Origin: a virus
Lineage: Duplodnaviria; Caudoviricetes
Virus record (IMG/VR): IMGVR_UViG_3300006226_001703
Location: 1-64,000 of that record
DNA: 64,000 nucleotides
Strand: one strand, 5' to 3'
Under the pieces are notes generated by a model that did not search any database, was not told where the DNA came from, and worked only from the letters and a program-made list of their open reading frames with translations. The position numbers and the translations under genes are program-made. Shown one piece after another: positions 8,230-40,944 of this stretch (the first letter of the stretch is position 1; the number at the start of each line of letters is the position of its first letter).

Positions 8230-8682
8230 CTAATCAAATAATTCTGAACTACTCAGAGCTTTCCTTAATCTTTTATTTTCAGCTTCAAGTACTTCTACTT
8301 TCTTTTCTAATTTGTTGCATATTCTGTGAAGTTTATCAACCTCTCCAAAAACTTCTTCCATAACTCTATCTACGTAATGTTCTTGCATTTCTGCAAATAT
8401 ATGTTGAATCACAGCGGCTTTATCCTCATCACCAAACACTTTCATTAAGTCGTCCATCTCTGGAACATATTTTAAGTCATTGAAATTCTTTTTCTTTTTG
8501 CTTTTTTTCGTATCGGCAGGGCCAAAATCTTCGCCATCATCATCTCCTGGACCTATCGCTGTAAGAAGCTGGTCTATCTCATCCTGAGAAAGCACTTCGG
8601 TGAAAACTATTTGATTCTTACTTTTTAGATGACCTAAATCATAGTCTGTGAGGCTATTCAAATCTATCGTTCTTTTATACAT
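8230..8682 (-). CDS. FliM N-terminal (CheY-binding) peptide-bearing protein with C-terminal coiled coil
   Basis: aa 28-43 TEVLSQDEIDQLLTAI match the FliM N-terminal LSQxEIDxLL motif; remainder is not FliM; ends ...SELFD. Confidence 0.8.
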   Translation of the reverse strand: MYKRTIDLNSLTDYDLGHLKSKNQIVFTEVLSQDEIDQLLTAIGPGDDDGEDFGPADTKKSKKKKNFNDLKYVPEMDDLMKVFGDEDKAAVIQHIFAEMQEHYVDRVMEEVFGEVDKLHRICNKLEKKVEVLEAENKRLRKALSSSELFD

Positions 8683-16822: not shown

Positions 16823-18676
16823 CTAATCTTCTACTACTTCAGAAATGTAATTCACTATTTCATCAGCAGAGAAATTTGAAAAATATTCTCCATCATCTTT
16901 ATATATAAGCGGCTTATCTTTAATACTTAACAATGACAAATGCTCCAAGAAAACTTCTTTTGCTTTTCGACTAAACTTTAATTGTCCGCTTGCTTCATCT
17001 GGTGAGTTAACGAACTTACCCTGCTTGTCGATACAAAGTTTAACGAAATTAATTGCCTTTTCAATTATCTCAGGAGTTGCTCTTCCAAAACGATATCTAA
17101 TTGTGTTGCTTCTCACTTGACGGGGTGGAACAATTTGTTGTTGATACTTAATCTCTCTAGTTGGACGTACTGTTACTTCTTCTGGGATATCTACAACTTG
17201 ATCAACAACCGATTCTTTTTCCTCGGTGTATGCCGCCATTTCTTCCATTGTAGTTGGTAATGGTGGAAGTTCTTCTTTTTCCCATTGTGTCAACTTTTCT
17301 TCTATGACTTCCATTGGTTGCGGTTGAGCTTCTGGTGCATCAGCAGGAAAAAGTCTATCAAAATCTTTAATAGTTGATTCAACTGCTTTTTTCATATCTG
17401 GAAAAGGTGGCTGTTCTGGAGCAGGATATTCTTTCTTTTTTCTTGGCTTTCGTTTTTTAACAGGTGGAGGAGGCGGGTCATTCTCAGGTGGCCTATACAA
17501 TGGGTTTGGGTCAGGCTCACCTAATACTAATGGTTCCTCATCTTCATCAATAACTGTCTCTTTAACTTTTGGAGTTGGGTTTTCATTTATTACGTAACCA
17601 ATATCTTCATCAGCATATAGTTCGATAATTTCATTGAATGTTCTATCTTCTGGTAATGAGCGTTTGAAATACTTCAAGATTAAGCCATTTATTCTAACAG
17701 CAGGGGCACATTGGAAAATAGTTAACTCTAATAAAAGTGATGCTAATAACAATATGAAAATCTTAATATGTTCTGGCGGGATTCTTCCACCAGTGTAGTT
17801 ACTAAAACCTTCAAACATATAAGTGAGGCCTTTGTCATGAATGATTTTGATTTCTTCATTCTGAATTTGTTCAGTCAATATGATTAATGCAATATTTCCA
17901 TTTGTTGCTTCAACATCAGCTTGTTCAATTAACATTAAAAGCTCATCATTTAATATTGATATTTGTCCTTCCATATCACTTTTTGATGCTTCAAATGTTG
18001 CTTGAATTCTAGTTCTTTCTGCCTCTGCTCTATTTCTAGTAGCTCTAACTTGAGTTAAATATGTTGACTGTGCTTGAAAGGCTTGATTAGCTGCAACCCA
18101 TTCTTCTGATTCTCTATCCATTATGTTGTCACGATCTAACCTTAATTGTGCAAATCTTGCTTCAGCTGCTCTAACGAGTGAATCTTCTTCCATCCAAATT
18201 TCATTTGCTGTTATCCAAGGTTGAAACTCCATGTATGTTGCAACATTTGCTGATTGACGTATGCTTACTATTTCATCCATTTTGTACTCAATAGCAGCTC
18301 GTCTTGATAATAGGATCTCTAAACCTGAATCTCTAATAGTTTGGGTTCTTGAAGTGATATAAGTTGAAAAACCAAGTGATGCTATAACGGATAATAAGCC
18401 ATAGACTAGATACCAACTGAATAAAGTGCGCGACTTTCTCAATAGTGGCTTGTAATTCAATTTTAGATATAGTGATTTTACGACATTAATAGAAATGACT
18501 GTAGTGAGTTTAGCACCTTCCAACGCAAGGGAAAGCGCTAATAAGAGATATGTCCAACCTGGGTCTAACGCAGTGAACAAAAACACATTGAACATAGCAG
18601 ATGCAATAGCTGCTATAATAAATGCTAGATACCTAGCCCCAATGTAAACATTGGAATCTGATAAAACTTTTTTCAT
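16823..18676 (-). CDS. membrane protein with coiled-coil and Pro-rich regions
   Basis: three N-terminal hydrophobic segments, LEGAKL, coiled coil, a further TM segment, Pro/Glu-rich tail. Confidence 0.7.
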   Translation of the reverse strand: MKKVLSDSNVYIGARYLAFIIAAIASAMFNVFLFTALDPGWTYLLLALSLALEGAKLTTVISINVVKSLYLKLNYKPLLRKSRTLFSWYLVYGLLSVIASLGFSTYITSRTQTIRDSGLEILLSRRAAIEYKMDEIVSIRQSANVATYMEFQPWITANEIWMEEDSLVRAAEARFAQLRLDRDNIMDRESEEWVAANQAFQAQSTYLTQVRATRNRAEAERTRIQATFEASKSDMEGQISILNDELLMLIEQADVEATNGNIALIILTEQIQNEEIKIIHDKGLTYMFEGFSNYTGGRIPPEHIKIFILLLASLLLELTIFQCAPAVRINGLILKYFKRSLPEDRTFNEIIELYADEDIGYVINENPTPKVKETVIDEDEEPLVLGEPDPNPLYRPPENDPPPPPVKKRKPRKKKEYPAPEQPPFPDMKKAVESTIKDFDRLFPADAPEAQPQPMEVIEEKLTQWEKEELPPLPTTMEEMAAYTEEKESVVDQVVDIPEEVTVRPTREIKYQQQIVPPRQVRSNTIRYRFGRATPEIIEKAINFVKLCIDKQGKFVNSPDEASGQLKFSRKAKEVFLEHLSLLSIKDKPLIYKDDGEYFSNFSADEIVNYISEVVED

Positions 18677-18709
18677 TTTTTCTCCATTGACAAAATATTG
18701 TTCTATTAT

Positions 18710-18964
18710 TTAGTCATCTTTTCTTTCGGAAGGAGAAAAAACTTTAGTTACCCTAATTCCATAGTTCTCGTCAATACTTACGACTTCACCTTCTGCGTAC
18801 TTAACGTTATTCACATAAACTGTAACAGGCTCGTCAGCATTTTTATCCAATTCGACAATAGTACCCACGCCAAATTGAAGGATATCTTTCACATTCTTTT
18901 TTACTGAGCCCAACCTTGCTGTTAGTTCAACGTTAACATTCTGTATGTTTTGATAATTATCCAT
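18710..18964 (-). CDS. fliN: FliN/FliY C-terminal (SpoA/FliMN_C) domain protein
   Basis: VELTARLG..KKNVKDILQFGVGTIVELDKNADEPVTVYVNNVKYAEGEVVSIDENYGIRVT is a textbook FliN domain. Confidence 0.9.
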   Translation of the reverse strand: MDNYQNIQNVNVELTARLGSVKKNVKDILQFGVGTIVELDKNADEPVTVYVNNVKYAEGEVVSIDENYGIRVTKVFSPSERKDD

Positions 18965-19007
18965 TATTTTAGATTAACTTAAGCTGCCCCAGCTCAACTT
19001 TTAGTTT

Positions 19008-19496
19008 TTAGTCCTTTTTCTCTATTTGAAGTCCACCAAAGATTGGGATCTTTTTAGGTGCTACCTCTTCTCGAGGAGGAATTGTGATAGTTAACAAACC
19101 ATTGTCGAATGTTACTTTGACTTGTTCTCTATCGAAATATCGAGGATCTACTTTCCAATTGGTTTCGACTCTCTCGATTCTCTTGAGTCCAAGTTGTAGA
19201 TAATAGTTGTTACTATCCTCTTTTCTGTCGTCTACTTTGTTTGGCACATCTACAACCAACTTAAGATTATCTCCGTCAAATGCGAGATTAATCCAGTCCT
19301 CGTGAATACCTGCCAATGCGGCTTGAATTGTTAGAGTCTTACTCTTTTGGTCAATTATGATATTAGTTGGTGGAAATGGTTGTGAAGCTATTTGCTTGTT
19401 AAACCTTGATGGTTGTAATGCAGATTGAAATGCAAAAACGTCGTTGAACATATCGTCGAAAATGTCGAATATGTCCCTATAGTACTTATTACTCAT
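19008..19496 (-). CDS. small heat-shock protein Hsp20
   Basis: FPPTNI...QAALAGI...VKVTFDNGLLTITIP alpha-crystallin pattern. Confidence 0.85.
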   Translation of the reverse strand: MSNKYYRDIFDIFDDMFNDVFAFQSALQPSRFNKQIASQPFPPTNIIIDQKSKTLTIQAALAGIHEDWINLAFDGDNLKLVVDVPNKVDDRKEDSNNYYLQLGLKRIERVETNWKVDPRYFDREQVKVTFDNGLLTITIPPREEVAPKKIPIFGGLQIEKKD

Positions 19497-20496: not shown

Positions 20497-20540
20497 ATTA
20501 AGTCCTCCATTACGATTTATTTCTATATTAACTAAATAAT

Positions 20541-21902
20541 ATGAACAATTTAATCACGACTATTGACAAAATTAGTGAAGTTTTAGAAAGCAAACTAAAA
20601 TTTAACGATAAACAACTAGTCTATTGTAGAGAAGATAATCGGCTTTACATGAAGGATAATGAGAATTTGATCGACATCCTTCTTGAACTTAGAGAACTCG
20701 TTAGTAGACCAATTGAATTTAGAACGCTAATTCCAGATTATGAAAACATAGGCTCAGAAAACATATTTACACAGAACTATAATGATAGCTTGCCTGACGG
20801 ACATCCAATCATACCATGGAATGCAAACCCACTTTCATATAAGGCTAATCATAATGGATATGTCCTCATTACTATTGAAGGCTTAACTAATTTTAGAATT
20901 TGCCACAATGGAACGAAAATAATTGAAAAAGAAGTTGACAAGAAAAAACCAAATACTTCAATTCTTTATGCCCAAACTTTTGAAATGGCAAAAGATGACG
21001 TTATTGAAGTGCATCGATTAAATGGTGTTGATAATATTGCTGATGAAGATGACACAGCAAAATATAGCTGCTATTGGGTGCCACCTCGTGTAATGCACAT
21101 GGAAAGCGGCTACATTAGAGATGAGAAAAAGTTAGTAGATTTAGTTTATCCAATTGGCTCAATTTATATCACAGTTAACCCAATCAATCCACATTATCTT
21201 TTTGGCGGTGTTTGGAAAATGTTTAGTCAAGGAAGAACACTCCTTGGTTTTAATGACAACATTGAAGAATGGGATGTTAAAAGAGATGGTAGTTTACAAA
21301 CTAGAAGATTATTAGATACTGGTGGTCGTGAAAGAGTTAAATTAGAGAAGCCACATATGCCAAACCATGACCATGATTTTAGAGAACATAACCCAGAAGA
21401 TACTCACACTGATTTTAGATATCACAAACATACTTTTGATGCGCATGAATATGAGACAACTAAAGTCAATGTTGTTCATACTTGGGAAAATGCAGCATCA
21501 GTAGAAGTTGTCAGTAATATTGATAAAAAAGAAAATTATGGACTAACTAAAGAAATGTGGCGAGTTAGTGAAAATCAAGATTTTACAGTAGATTCTAATA
21601 ATAAATTAATGGCATTTGGTGATGATGTTACAAGAAATACAGTTCACCGTGTTAAGGGTGATAATTTAGCTCATAGAGACTCCTTTGATTTGGAAACAGG
21701 AACTTGGGCTGATGATATTAAATTGGTTAGAGACAACTATTATGCTGGTGGTGATGAACCAAGGGCTGAATATGAAACTGAAAATACAAGAACATCTGAT
21801 TACTCACATATACCACACAATTTCAAAGCTGATGGTGGTGATAGACCACATGAAAATATGATGCCTTATGTAGTAACTTATATTTGGGAGAGGAAGGAAT
21901 AA
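20541..21902 (+). CDS. baseplate/tail-collar protein (T4 gp10 C-terminal-like)
   Basis: YPIGSIYIT..NP..LFGGVW...QGRTLLG and HENMMPYVVTYIWER. Confidence 0.75.
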   Translation: MNNLITTIDKISEVLESKLKFNDKQLVYCREDNRLYMKDNENLIDILLELRELVSRPIEFRTLIPDYENIGSENIFTQNYNDSLPDGHPIIPWNANPLSYKANHNGYVLITIEGLTNFRICHNGTKIIEKEVDKKKPNTSILYAQTFEMAKDDVIEVHRLNGVDNIADEDDTAKYSCYWVPPRVMHMESGYIRDEKKLVDLVYPIGSIYITVNPINPHYLFGGVWKMFSQGRTLLGFNDNIEEWDVKRDGSLQTRRLLDTGGRERVKLEKPHMPNHDHDFREHNPEDTHTDFRYHKHTFDAHEYETTKVNVVHTWENAASVEVVSNIDKKENYGLTKEMWRVSENQDFTVDSNNKLMAFGDDVTRNTVHRVKGDNLAHRDSFDLETGTWADDIKLVRDNYYAGGDEPRAEYETENTRTSDYSHIPHNFKADGGDRPHENMMPYVVTYIWERKE

Positions 21903-28410: not shown

Positions 28411-28718
28411 TTTATTCTCCTTACTTGACTTATTGGAATCGGTGTAAAGACTTTAAATTCTTGAATTACATCATTAGGCCCAGCTTCTTTTTGCTCTTTT
28501 AAGAAATTAACATCAAACTGGTCAAATGGTCTACCTTTAAATTCGTAATCAACTTCTAAAAGCACATCAGTTTTCCAACCATTGAAAGAAAAGTTTTCTC
28601 CCCAATCAACTTCGGATAACGAAATAAACCCATAATTCCCGCCAAGCCACCCATCTAGACAACCTGACATTTGAATTTTTCTCCAATTTTCTTCTGTAGT
28701 TCTATGTAATAATTTCAT
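28407..28718 (-). CDS. possible ADP-ribosyltransferase-fold protein
   Basis: LLHRT...ISLS...QEFKVFTPIP matches the H-x-T / S / E layout of small ART-fold proteins. Confidence 0.4.
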   Translation of the reverse strand: MKLLHRTTEENWRKIQMSGCLDGWLGGNYGFISLSEVDWGENFSFNGWKTDVLLEVDYEFKGRPFDQFDVNFLKEQKEAGPNDVIQEFKVFTPIPISQVRRIK

Positions 28719-29119
28719 CTTATCTCAAATTGTAAATCATTATAATGGTTGTCATACTTCAGAATATTATGAAGTTGGTCTAACCATTTTTTATCGCCAA
28801 TCATTAATGGAGTTATTTCCCAAGCATTTTTATTTTGAACTAAATCTTTAGCTTCTTTTAAGCCAAATTCTTTTACTTCTAAATTGCTATATTTTTCTCC
28901 AAACTCTTTGTGTAAGTTTCTAATAGTTTTAATAACAGATATTGTGTACTCTTCATTAAATGATTTTAAGAATAAAGCTGCTTTTTGAGATTTAGTTTTT
29001 TCAAGTTTTCTGTTAACTTTTAATTCGTAACCTCTGTCAACTAATTGTTGAGATAATTCGTAAAATTCATCACTGTCTAATTCATCAAATAATTCTAATA
29101 TATGTAGAACGTCTTTCAT
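28715..29119 (-). CDS. ribosomal protein bL12 C-terminal-like domain protein
   Basis: ISVIKTIR...GLKEAKDLV resembles bL12 KIxVIKxVR...GLKEAKDLVE, with an insertion. Confidence 0.6.
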   Translation of the reverse strand: MKDVLHILELFDELDSDEFYELSQQLVDRGYELKVNRKLEKTKSQKAALFLKSFNEEYTISVIKTIRNLHKEFGEKYSNLEVKEFGLKEAKDLVQNKNAWEITPLMIGDKKWLDQLHNILKYDNHYNDLQFEIR

Positions 29120-29122
29120 ATT

Positions 29123-29470
29123 TTAATCCAATAAATGTAAAAAATTAGCTCGTAAGTCTTGCCATTCCTTTTTATTTAATAAGCTTCCCAATATATGTAA
29201 AGTCATTCTTGGGTTATTTCCTTTTTGAATTGATAGCACTGCTTCCTTTTTAATTTCGTCAAGCTCACTGTTTATCAAAGGTTTTAATATCTTCTTAACA
29301 TCTTTACTATCAGTTCCATCAATAACAAATCTCAAACCATACCAAAAAATATCTCTATTGTTTACTTCTTCAACATGTTCGTTAGTTTCATCCTCCAAAG
29401 CCAAGAGCCCCTCTCGTCTTGCCTTTTCCGATAGACTTAAAGCCTTAATAATAAAATTTATCTTTTCCAT
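29123..29470 (-). CDS. soluble MotA/PomA cytoplasmic-domain-like protein (no TM helices)
   Basis: SEKARREGLLALED...GLRFVIDG joined directly to AVLSIQKGNNPR, which in MotA are the cytoplasmic loop and C-terminal tail. Confidence 0.8.
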   Translation of the reverse strand: MEKINFIIKALSLSEKARREGLLALEDETNEHVEEVNNRDIFWYGLRFVIDGTDSKDVKKILKPLINSELDEIKKEAVLSIQKGNNPRMTLHILGSLLNKKEWQDLRANFLHLLD

Positions 29471-32673: not shown

Positions 32674-33057
32674 CTACCTTGTTATTAGATTAACTATTGG
32701 CTCATACAAGCCACCAGTGAATTGTAACGCAAATATGATTCCACCAAACATTGTAGTAGCCACAACATTATAGTTTGAGACTTGAACTTTATGTGGATTA
32801 TTTCCAGCATAGACATGATAACAGAGACTGATAAAAGTTAGAATATGCAGAATGTTCATCTGCCAGCAGAATGCGTTGAAGTCAGAATCAACTGACATCA
32901 CGATCATCGCAACAATCCAAATAATCGTTGACAATGATGTCCAATACGGAGAACCTCCGGGCTTCATTTGCCGTCCATGTTTTGCTGCTGAAACTAATAT
33001 GCCCTTCAAAAGCATAAAACCAAAATAGATACTAAAAATGAGCTGAAGCGTAGTCAT
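32674..33057 (-). CDS. membrane protein
   Basis: about four hydrophobic segments. Confidence 0.65.
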   Translation of the reverse strand: MTTLQLIFSIYFGFMLLKGILVSAAKHGRQMKPGGSPYWTSLSTIIWIVAMIVMSVDSDFNAFCWQMNILHILTFISLCYHVYAGNNPHKVQVSNYNVVATTMFGGIIFALQFTGGLYEPIVNLITR

Positions 33058-40774: not shown

Positions 40775-40944
40775 ATTTTTAGATTAACTTTCAACCTAAT
40801 ATGATCAATAATAATGAAACCTAATAATCCAACTGTAAAAAATACTTGAAATAATGGGAAAATAGATAAATAGAGAAACAATGGAACTCCAATACAAATT
40901 CCAAAAACGATAGCAGTCATTTTAATAAACTCATTCCAACTCAT
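40771..40944 (-). CDS. small membrane protein (57 aa, not in ORF track)
   Basis: hand translation MSWNEFIKMTAIVFGICIGVPLFLYLSIFPLFQVFFTVGLLGFIIIDHIRLKVNLKI. Confidence 0.5.
   Translation of the reverse strand: MSWNEFIKMTAIVFGICIGVPLFLYLSIFPLFQVFFTVGLLGFIIIDHIRLKVNLKI

Follow-up and report, generated by a model that had tools for sequence, protein, structure and literature searches.

The window analysed here carries, as a gene of its own, a single FliN/SpoA domain (hereafter phage FliN) that is best explained as a phage-adapted copy of the SpoA domain with which FliY ends and would act as an interfering mimic at the base of the host C ring; going by sequence comparison, we give this reading a probability of about one half. 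That the phage tampers in some way with the flagellar motor of the infected cell is the most likely interpretation of the same comparisons. The gene represents a known domain family in a new setting and is part of a wider pattern of switch genes in jumbo phages that is apparently unpublished, a search of the full-text literature, with incomplete coverage, having found no phage-encoded FliN, FliM or FliG.

The window is a stretch of 64,000 nt from the 86.6-kb IMG/VR record IMGVR_UViG_3300006226_001703, which is ~26% complete according to CheckV, a figure that suggests a genome of ~300 kb. GC content is even along the record (0.31-0.38), and phage genes occur all along it, namely those for tail proteins, a T4-type RNA ligase, a DnaB-like helicase, GroEL, an amidase and radical-SAM/NrdG-like proteins. 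The source is a jumbo phage whose hosts are probably Treponema spirochaetes. PF01052 aside, no flagellar Pfam family was matched among the 92 ORFs of at most 420 aa in the 86.6-kb record. The gene and its two neighbours are as follows.

18710..18964, minus strand: stand-alone FliN/SpoA gene, 84 aa (Pfam PF01052, PDB phmmer, alignment with the FliY C-terminus, dN/dS)
19008..19496, minus strand: Hsp20-like gene, the upstream neighbour (Pfam HSP20, 24.5 bits, cut-off 20.8; phrog_432, 2.6e-9)
16823..18676, minus strand: gene for a 617-aa membrane protein with four hydrophobic segments, the downstream neighbour

Domain type and origin of the phage protein

An earlier note on this DNA had described the 84-aa product as essentially one FliN domain with a FliY-like tail, encoded between Hsp20 and membrane-protein genes, and all of this was borne out. 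Residues 6-75 match Pfam FliMN_C (PF01052) with 88.1 bits (E 3.7e-25, cut-off 23.8), covering positions 2-71 of the 73 in the profile (87.5 bits in the genome search), and the terminal VFSPSER is the counterpart, in the alignment, of I[LV]SP[ML]ER at the end of FliY and FliN from cells. Translation starts at the first ATG of an open frame of just 87 codons, from which the N-terminal CheY-binding peptide and the CheC-like middle domain of FliY are absent. With a stop codon and a stem-loop upstream, fliN is a separate gene and no internal-start product of a longer SpoA gene. A PHROGs search returned no family for the protein.

In a phmmer comparison with the PDB, phage FliN aligned end to end with Salmonella FliN (1.6e-17, 3.6e-14) and matched T. 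maritima FliN (~4e-16) as well as H. pylori FliY and FliN. The FliN and FliY matches span 1e-17 to 1e-12, while the injectisome protein HrcQ2 was the weakest of all (9e-4). Because the FliN/FliY scores lie so far above that of HrcQ2, the phage protein is, as judged from these alignments, of the flagellar rather than the injectisome type, and its 45% identity to a solved FliN makes a SpoA fold very likely. The AF2 monomer, built from a 15-row alignment, reached a pLDDT of only 52.7, with its elements in the order strand, helix, four strands, helix, which in this low-confidence model is compatible with a SpoA fold of five strands and flanking helices.

The cellular relatives of the domain point to a particular source. 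A search of 1.84 billion representative proteins recovered 11,582 relatives of phage FliN, the best single-domain protein matches being the C-terminal ends of 330-410-aa proteins at 54-58% identity. In a scan of one genome per species, covering 185,579 species, the top matches came mostly from Treponema and then from other Spirochaetota (53-59% identity); every untruncated match was the extreme C-terminus of an open frame, which measured ~350-430 aa at most loci, and a FliM-like gene lay directly upstream of the matched frame in at least 57 of 80 loci. This C-terminal position and the FliM-like gene upstream identify the cellular matches as FliY, which in spirochaetes is the FliN-type subunit of the C-ring base. 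The FliY of T. bryantii begins with a CheY-type peptide, continues with a middle domain and a long Met/Gly-rich linker and closes with a SpoA domain (host FliY proteins are 401-408 aa long), and phage FliN is 57% identical to its C-terminus over 79 aa (E 4e-26), the phage ORF beginning at the same boundary as the SpoA domain of the host protein. FliM and FliY were present, and a short stand-alone FliN was absent, in the two Treponema genomes checked. Besides FliM and FliY, T. bryantii (G001) has four more frames of ~390-500 aa with SpoA-domain matches (C8:13853-14224, C16:170435-170797, C5:167611-167958 and C5:223553-223693), three of them with two such matches and one with a TAA inside a match.

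Within phages, five close metagenomic homologues of phage FliN (65-76% identity) were found on contigs of up to 174-183 kb, and an IMG/VR profile scan added two more, of 83 aa on a 261-kb contig (L105) and of 92 aa (L109). The stand-alone copies, first six and later eight in number, form one clade (SH-aLRT 100) on a long stem of ~2.6-2.9 substitutions per site, which attaches among Spirochaetota and outside a well-supported Bacillota clade in a tree of 84 columns. The earlier note had allowed that the protein might group with non-flagellar SpoA proteins, or be a decaying fragment. Taken together, the tree, the genome scan and the PDB ranking instead place it with spirochaete flagellar FliY and FliN and not with injectisome SpoA proteins, and the reading frame is intact in all eight stand-alone copies. 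For the window copy and the five homologues, pN is 0.17-0.25 against a pS of 0.55-0.87, at which synonymous sites are saturated, and dN/dS is 0.08-0.26 where dS could be estimated, a signature of purifying selection.

Clade-specific substitutions and companion motor fragments

Across 50 FliY proteins from spirochaetes, the SpoA domain shows almost no variation. The phage copies retain its fold core, comprising L18, G19, L29, G32, G34, E38-L39-D40-K41, A43 and E45-P46, with V51-N52, A57, G59, V61-V62, D65-E66, G69 and T73 further along. At ~15 positions that are invariant, or nearly so, in the 50 FliY proteins, other residues are fixed in the phage copies: L6N, D9N, M12V and M14L; G30Q; L42N, G44D/N and D48T; L50Y/F, H53N, K54V, a change to K at residue 55 and I56Y/F; K58E and V63S/A; and E74K and a change to F at residue 76. 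K58E and E74K reverse the charge at two positions where the sampled spirochaete FliY proteins never vary.

Placed via the Salmonella structures, many of the changes appear to fall at three interfaces, namely the FliH patch, helix alpha-1 and strand 4. Salmonella numbering equals that of the query plus 50 (in PDB 8umd_D, query residues 5-81 pair with FliN 55-131), so that L42, G44 and V63 correspond to Salmonella L92, G94 and V113. The published FliH-binding patch, as given in PMC7505661, which cites McMurry 2006, consists of L68, A93, V111, V113 and Y118, and the T. maritima equivalents are given in PMC6248999. Conservation of this patch, which the earlier note had proposed as a check, turned out to be partial. 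Four of the five residues are kept in the phage clade (L18, A43, V61 and Y/F68), but the equivalent of V113, which is V in 71 of 73 cellular domains, is S or A in 8/8 stand-alone copies, and the residues on either side of A93 are polar or acidic (L92N, G94D/N).

The second group of changes lies in the segment before strand 1, where L6N, M8Q and D9N stand in place of conserved residues. FliN is made up of three helices and five strands (PMC11528121); from the order of these elements and the low-confidence AF2 model, the segment probably corresponds to helix alpha-1, which in the Salmonella C ring inserts in clefts of neighbouring dimers to give a continuous base spiral (PMC11528121). A third cluster occupies the strand 3-4 hairpin and strand 4, whose pairing partner in the ring is the segment of FliM-N from residue 34 to residue 45 (PMC11528121).

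The state of the patch bears directly on the idea of a soluble decoy, in which free dimers of phage FliN bind the N-terminal peptide of FliH, draw FliH-FliI off the C ring and so stop export. FliN is the known docking site of FliH (PMC6248999, PMC4443714), and the four retained patch residues would suit such a role. The replacement of V113 by S or A in all stand-alone copies, L92N and G94D/N, however, fall at positions that are all invariant in cellular FliY, and the FliH peptide prefers the FliM-FliN heterodimer over the FliN homodimer (PMC4443714); we consider a decoy of this kind quite improbable.

Phage FliN has company in the same genome. When all 114 phage ORFs were set against a 40-kb stretch of the flagellar operon of T. 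bryantii, exactly three of them gave significant matches, to FliY, FliM and MotA, respectively. The source genes of the three fragments all belong to the host motA-motB-fliL-fliM-fliY operon; in the phage genome the fragments are scattered, each of them cut to a single interaction module. The two companions of fliN are as follows.

8230..8682, minus strand: FliM-N peptide gene, 150 aa (EVLSQDEIDQLLTAI, then a leucine-zipper-like coiled coil)
29123..29470, minus strand: MotA loop gene, soluble protein of 115 aa (MotA cytoplasmic loop plus MotA C-terminal tail)

Residues 29-67 of the 150-aa protein are 56% identical to residues 3-41 of T. bryantii FliM (39 aa, E 9e-10), and the 15-mer EVLSQDEIDQLLTAI, the CheY-P docking peptide, recurs unchanged at the N-terminus of many FliM proteins of Treponema. 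Homologues of this protein occur in G003, G004 and G005, with short matches to the N-terminal peptide alone in G006 and G008. The 115-aa protein matches PDB MotA (phmmer, 1e-8) over loop residues 77-140 and tail residues 216-253, and the cytoplasmic loop of T. bryantii MotA at 45% over 60 aa (E 5e-10). It has an ARREGLLALE motif in its loop part and no membrane helices, so that it could not conduct ions and only binding or competition would be possible. A weak homologue is present in G007 (L113); none was found in the 68.7-kb G003 or in G004, G005, G006 and G008, an absence that weighs little for fragments. The ORF adjoining the MotA-like gene (28715-29119, minus strand) weakly resembles the ribosomal L7/L12 C-terminal domain, with 22.1 bits against a cut-off of 25.9 that it does not reach.

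In the preferred reading, that of an interfering mimic of the FliY C-terminus, phage FliN, which lacks the CheY-binding peptide, the CheC-like domain and the linker, would have kept the core needed for intertwined SpoA dimers. It would pair with the FliM-C or FliY-C of the host, or join the base spiral as a homodimer. Once incorporated it would fail to dock FliH, and it could serve as a chain-terminating cap that takes a neighbour and cannot plug into the next unit, as a result of which flagellar export and assembly, or switching, would be disturbed. This particular version of the mimic, a cap without a FliH dock, we hold to be possible though doubtful. The FliM-N peptide protein might be a decoy that soaks up CheY-P, and the soluble MotA loop might compete for FliG and block the torque surface; that the three are single-module mimics from one host operon, making up a kit that disarms the spirochaete flagellar motor, is again a tentative proposal. 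That phage FliN binds the switch proteins of the host, no longer docks FliH, caps the spiral and benefits the phage is in each case inferred rather than observed, and the benefit is speculative, be it that energy and export capacity are saved or that the infected cell is held in place.

The earlier note had itself suggested a dominant-negative C-ring subunit or a blocker of flagellar export. In outline this would fit the remodelled patch, the altered N-terminal segment and the companion fragments, while simple sequestration of FliH is disfavoured by the sequence. Over-expression of FliN is said, in work of Tang and colleagues from 1995, to impair flagellation in E. coli. SpoA dimers are intertwined, so the entry of phage FliN into a pre-built ring may be slow, which counts against a mimic.

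Switch genes of related phages and cellular counterparts

Other low-GC jumbo-phage contigs also carry spirochaete-type switch genes, in differing forms. In a complete 329-kb genome with terminal repeats (L107), the gene for a full FliG (N, M and C domains) stands directly before that for a FliM-FliN fusion of 465 aa, the pair spanning L107:1666-4270 on the plus strand; the CheY-binding-like N-terminal peptide of the fusion is duplicated. A full-length FliG and a FliM-FliN fusion of this type look assembly-competent. In the complete 306-kb genome L108, a FliM fragment of 225 aa precedes a protein of 155 aa that has a FliN domain at its end. The split and cut-down forms are located as follows.

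L108, 3111-4249: split FliM/FliN, 225 + 155 aa
L110, 3212-4216: cut-down FliM with a FliN-type C-domain, 334 aa
L112, 420-1235: cut-down FliM with a FliN-type C-domain, 271 aa

Genes in common with the window phage (such as GroEL, the Hsp20-like gene, the FliM-N peptide protein and homologues of single ORFs) were found for L105, L108, L109, L112 and the L107 genome, and the L107 and L110 contigs themselves are linked to it through flagellar genes alone. The fused FliM-FliN forms keep the cellular patch signature (DKLAGEPVD, GEVVVID), which in the stand-alone clade is remodelled to DKNA[DN]EPVT and GEVV[SA]. One further contig, L106, with a 121-aa FliN after a 341-aa FliM, was left uncounted; its GC content is 0.44 and the genes lie near the contig end, so that they look like host flank.

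These relatives bear on the possibility of a working spare part, that is, a minimal FliN that keeps the motor running, or re-tunes its bias by removing the FliY phosphatase domain. The full FliG and FliM-FliN genes in related phages might point to a motor that is rebuilt or kept up and not poisoned, and to that extent they count against a mimic. Their presence in related complete jumbo phages, the strong purifying selection on phage FliN and the use of a short single-domain FliN of this kind in many bacteria would all agree with a spare part. It sits badly, though, with the fixed non-conservative changes, including K58E and E74K at spirochaete-invariant positions, and with the very long phage stem where the host domain barely varies. 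Nor do the companion fragments suit it, as a MotA fragment without membrane helices cannot be a stator and the FliM fragment is the CheY-docking peptide only. We regard a spare part as unlikely.

Matches in GenBank phage records proved to be of a different nature. A megablast search with 10 kb around fliN gave no match to GenBank phages, and tblastn with phage FliN gave seven matches in GenBank 'phages'. As precedents we rejected MW495066.1 (L085, 'Microcystis phage MaAM05'), in which the match belongs to a pomA/ompA/fliM/fliY locus of bacterial style close to fabI and engB, a record that a 2026 comment argues to be a bacterial fragment (PMC13623518); MT835480, in which it falls within a 420-aa ORF after ORFs of 351 and 331 aa, like a bacterial fliM-fliY locus; and Salmonella and Listeria 'phage' records, which are short fragments.

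Such cases raise the question of whether phage FliN is itself a decaying remnant of captured host DNA, or the contig contaminated by its host. The two bacterial-like fliM-fliY contexts among the GenBank 'phage' matches (PMC13623518) and the IMG/VR label of the record, 'provirus', would speak for this. It is nonetheless hardly credible, given that eight of eight copies are intact and six of six tested are under selection, that fliN lies amid genes for tail proteins, RNA ligase, DnaB helicase and GroEL, and that homologues are also present in complete phage genomes that have terminal repeats. The GC content of fliN (0.357) matches that of the phage ORFs (0.340 +/- 0.043), which argues against a recent capture, and the finding of switch genes in jumbo phages related to this one, including two complete genomes with terminal repeats, argues against host contamination.

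Set beside known systems, phage FliN most resembles the FliY C-terminus of Treponema and other Spirochaetota, with which it shares the domain boundary, the SP-x-ER tail and the fold core at 53-59% identity. The cellular protein, however, is ~400 aa long and has a CheY-binding peptide, a CheC-like domain and a Met/Gly-rich linker, none of which is found in phage FliN, and its gene lies beside fliM, whereas phage fliN lies beside an hsp20-like gene. The short FliN of Salmonella, E. coli and T. maritima (PDB 8UMD, 4YXB, 1YAB, 1O6A) is a single SpoA domain like phage FliN, which differs from it in the Ser or Ala at the V113 equivalent, in the Asn and Gln that replace hydrophobic residues before strand 1 and in the lack of a fliM gene beside it. 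The switch genes of related jumbo phages contain spirochaete-type FliN domains too, but these are fused to FliM parts. Among free SpoA-only proteins made by cells, the nearest known likeness is SctQ-C (SpaO-short, Spa33-C, YscQ-C), a product of ~80-100 aa that pairs with a longer SpoA partner and shapes the sorting platform (PMC4443714, PMC4832279, PMC13059759). SctQ-C arises by internal translation of the same gene and is required for function, whereas phage FliN is the product of a separate viral gene.

A functional parallel may lie with EpsE, YcgR and MotI, host-encoded brakes or clutches that act on FliG or MotA and stop or alter the motor; the proposed principle of a small soluble rotor binder would be shared, but in sequence and fold these proteins are unrelated to phage FliN. 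Flagella also serve phages as receptors. Should phage FliN interfere with the C ring, evolution would have produced in it a natural inhibitor of the assembly of the ring's base, and its fixed substitutions would mark the residues that matter for docking FliH and for propagating the spiral in motors of the FliY type; in spirochaetes, such motors are difficult to approach by genetics. If the three fragments do form a kit, motility would be a target of viral takeover in gut spirochaetes, whose swimming decides their position in steep gradients. The phage series, from full FliG and FliM-FliN down to bare domains, offers a natural test of which switch parts suffice.

Gene order and start-proximal signals

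Phage fliN does not lie in a fliM flagellar operon and is flanked by the phage hsp20-like and membrane-protein genes, the latter without a Pfam or PHROG match. The order hsp20-like/fliN/membrane protein occurs in six lineages, namely the window, L003 (= L002), L096, L097 (truncated), L098 and L105. Syntenic homologues of the Hsp20-like gene were found in L003, L096, L097, L098 and L105 (46-73% identical), and homologues of the membrane protein downstream of fliN in L003, L096, L098 and L105. They are not the neighbours of fliN in L095, where nrdD comes before fliN and an HNH-like gene after it. In the 261-kb relative L105, fliN is separated from the membrane-protein gene by an inserted ORF of 139 aa and a complete gene for S-adenosylmethionine synthetase (L105:4617-5777, plus strand).

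The synteny with Hsp20 and membrane-protein genes counts against a mimic, as it could point to a phage-specific role. The SpoA domain would then be a scaffold in non-flagellar use, for example in a complex with the membrane protein or an Hsp20/GroEL module, and the gene order kept in six lineages, the long stem and the many surface changes could all be accommodated. Against this, the L095 gene stands without these neighbours, two genes come between fliN and the membrane-protein gene in L105, the flagellar-type signature and tail are retained, and the two motor-derived fragments located in other parts of the genome suggest that the motor is the target. A scaffold of this sort seems to us improbable.

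Three signals lie at the ends of the gene.

18976..19000, minus strand: stem-loop in the gap between the hsp20-like gene and fliN (MFE -9.6 kcal/mol, z = -2.4)
18970..18978, minus strand: GTTAATCTA motif, 5 nt before the fliN ATG
18704..18714, minus strand: ACTAAATAATA motif across the fliN stop, start-region signal of the downstream membrane-protein gene

A stem-loop of differing sequence is found at the equivalent site in L003, L096, L097 and L098, making five lineages with the window; in three of the other lineages it is followed by a U-run, as in a terminator, with the ATG 10-14 nt on. This conserved stem-loop is the true upstream boundary of fliN. No Shine-Dalgarno sequence precedes the gene in the window or in the syntenic lineages examined; with the terminator-like hairpin upstream, expression of fliN may therefore be low, which is a further point against a mimic.

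The earlier note had pictured a mini-cassette, with an upstream motif of its own and a second motif overlapping the stop. The first of these is real and enriched: GTTAATCTA occurs four times in the window against 0.86 expected (2900-2908, 18970-18978, 32686-32694 and 40780-40788), always on the minus strand, in leftward gene clusters, and 5-22 nt before an ORF start. It is conserved before the L003 homologue, occupies the gap between stem-loop and ATG in both the window and L003, and may be a second class of start-proximal signal. The second motif is present as well, ACTAAATA at 18707-18714 (minus strand) overlapping the TAA stop of fliN (12 copies in the window against 4.7 expected), and variants are conserved past the fliN stop in L003, L096 and L097, but it is not a signal of fliN itself. 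The motif ACTAAATAAT lies 0-3 nt from the ATG of several genes, among which is that for the tail protein at 20541 (sites at 20531, 41449 and 49553 in the window, and at 69518, 81130 and others in G000), and 14-110 nt ahead of further ORF starts. Since it stands at the starts of other genes and its variants are kept after the fliN stop, it belongs to the downstream gene. The cassette thus keeps its upstream boundary, in the form of the conserved stem-loop, and the downstream motif had been over-read. ACTAAATAAT resembles the T4 late promoter, TATAAATA, but lies too near the ATG for an ordinary leader.
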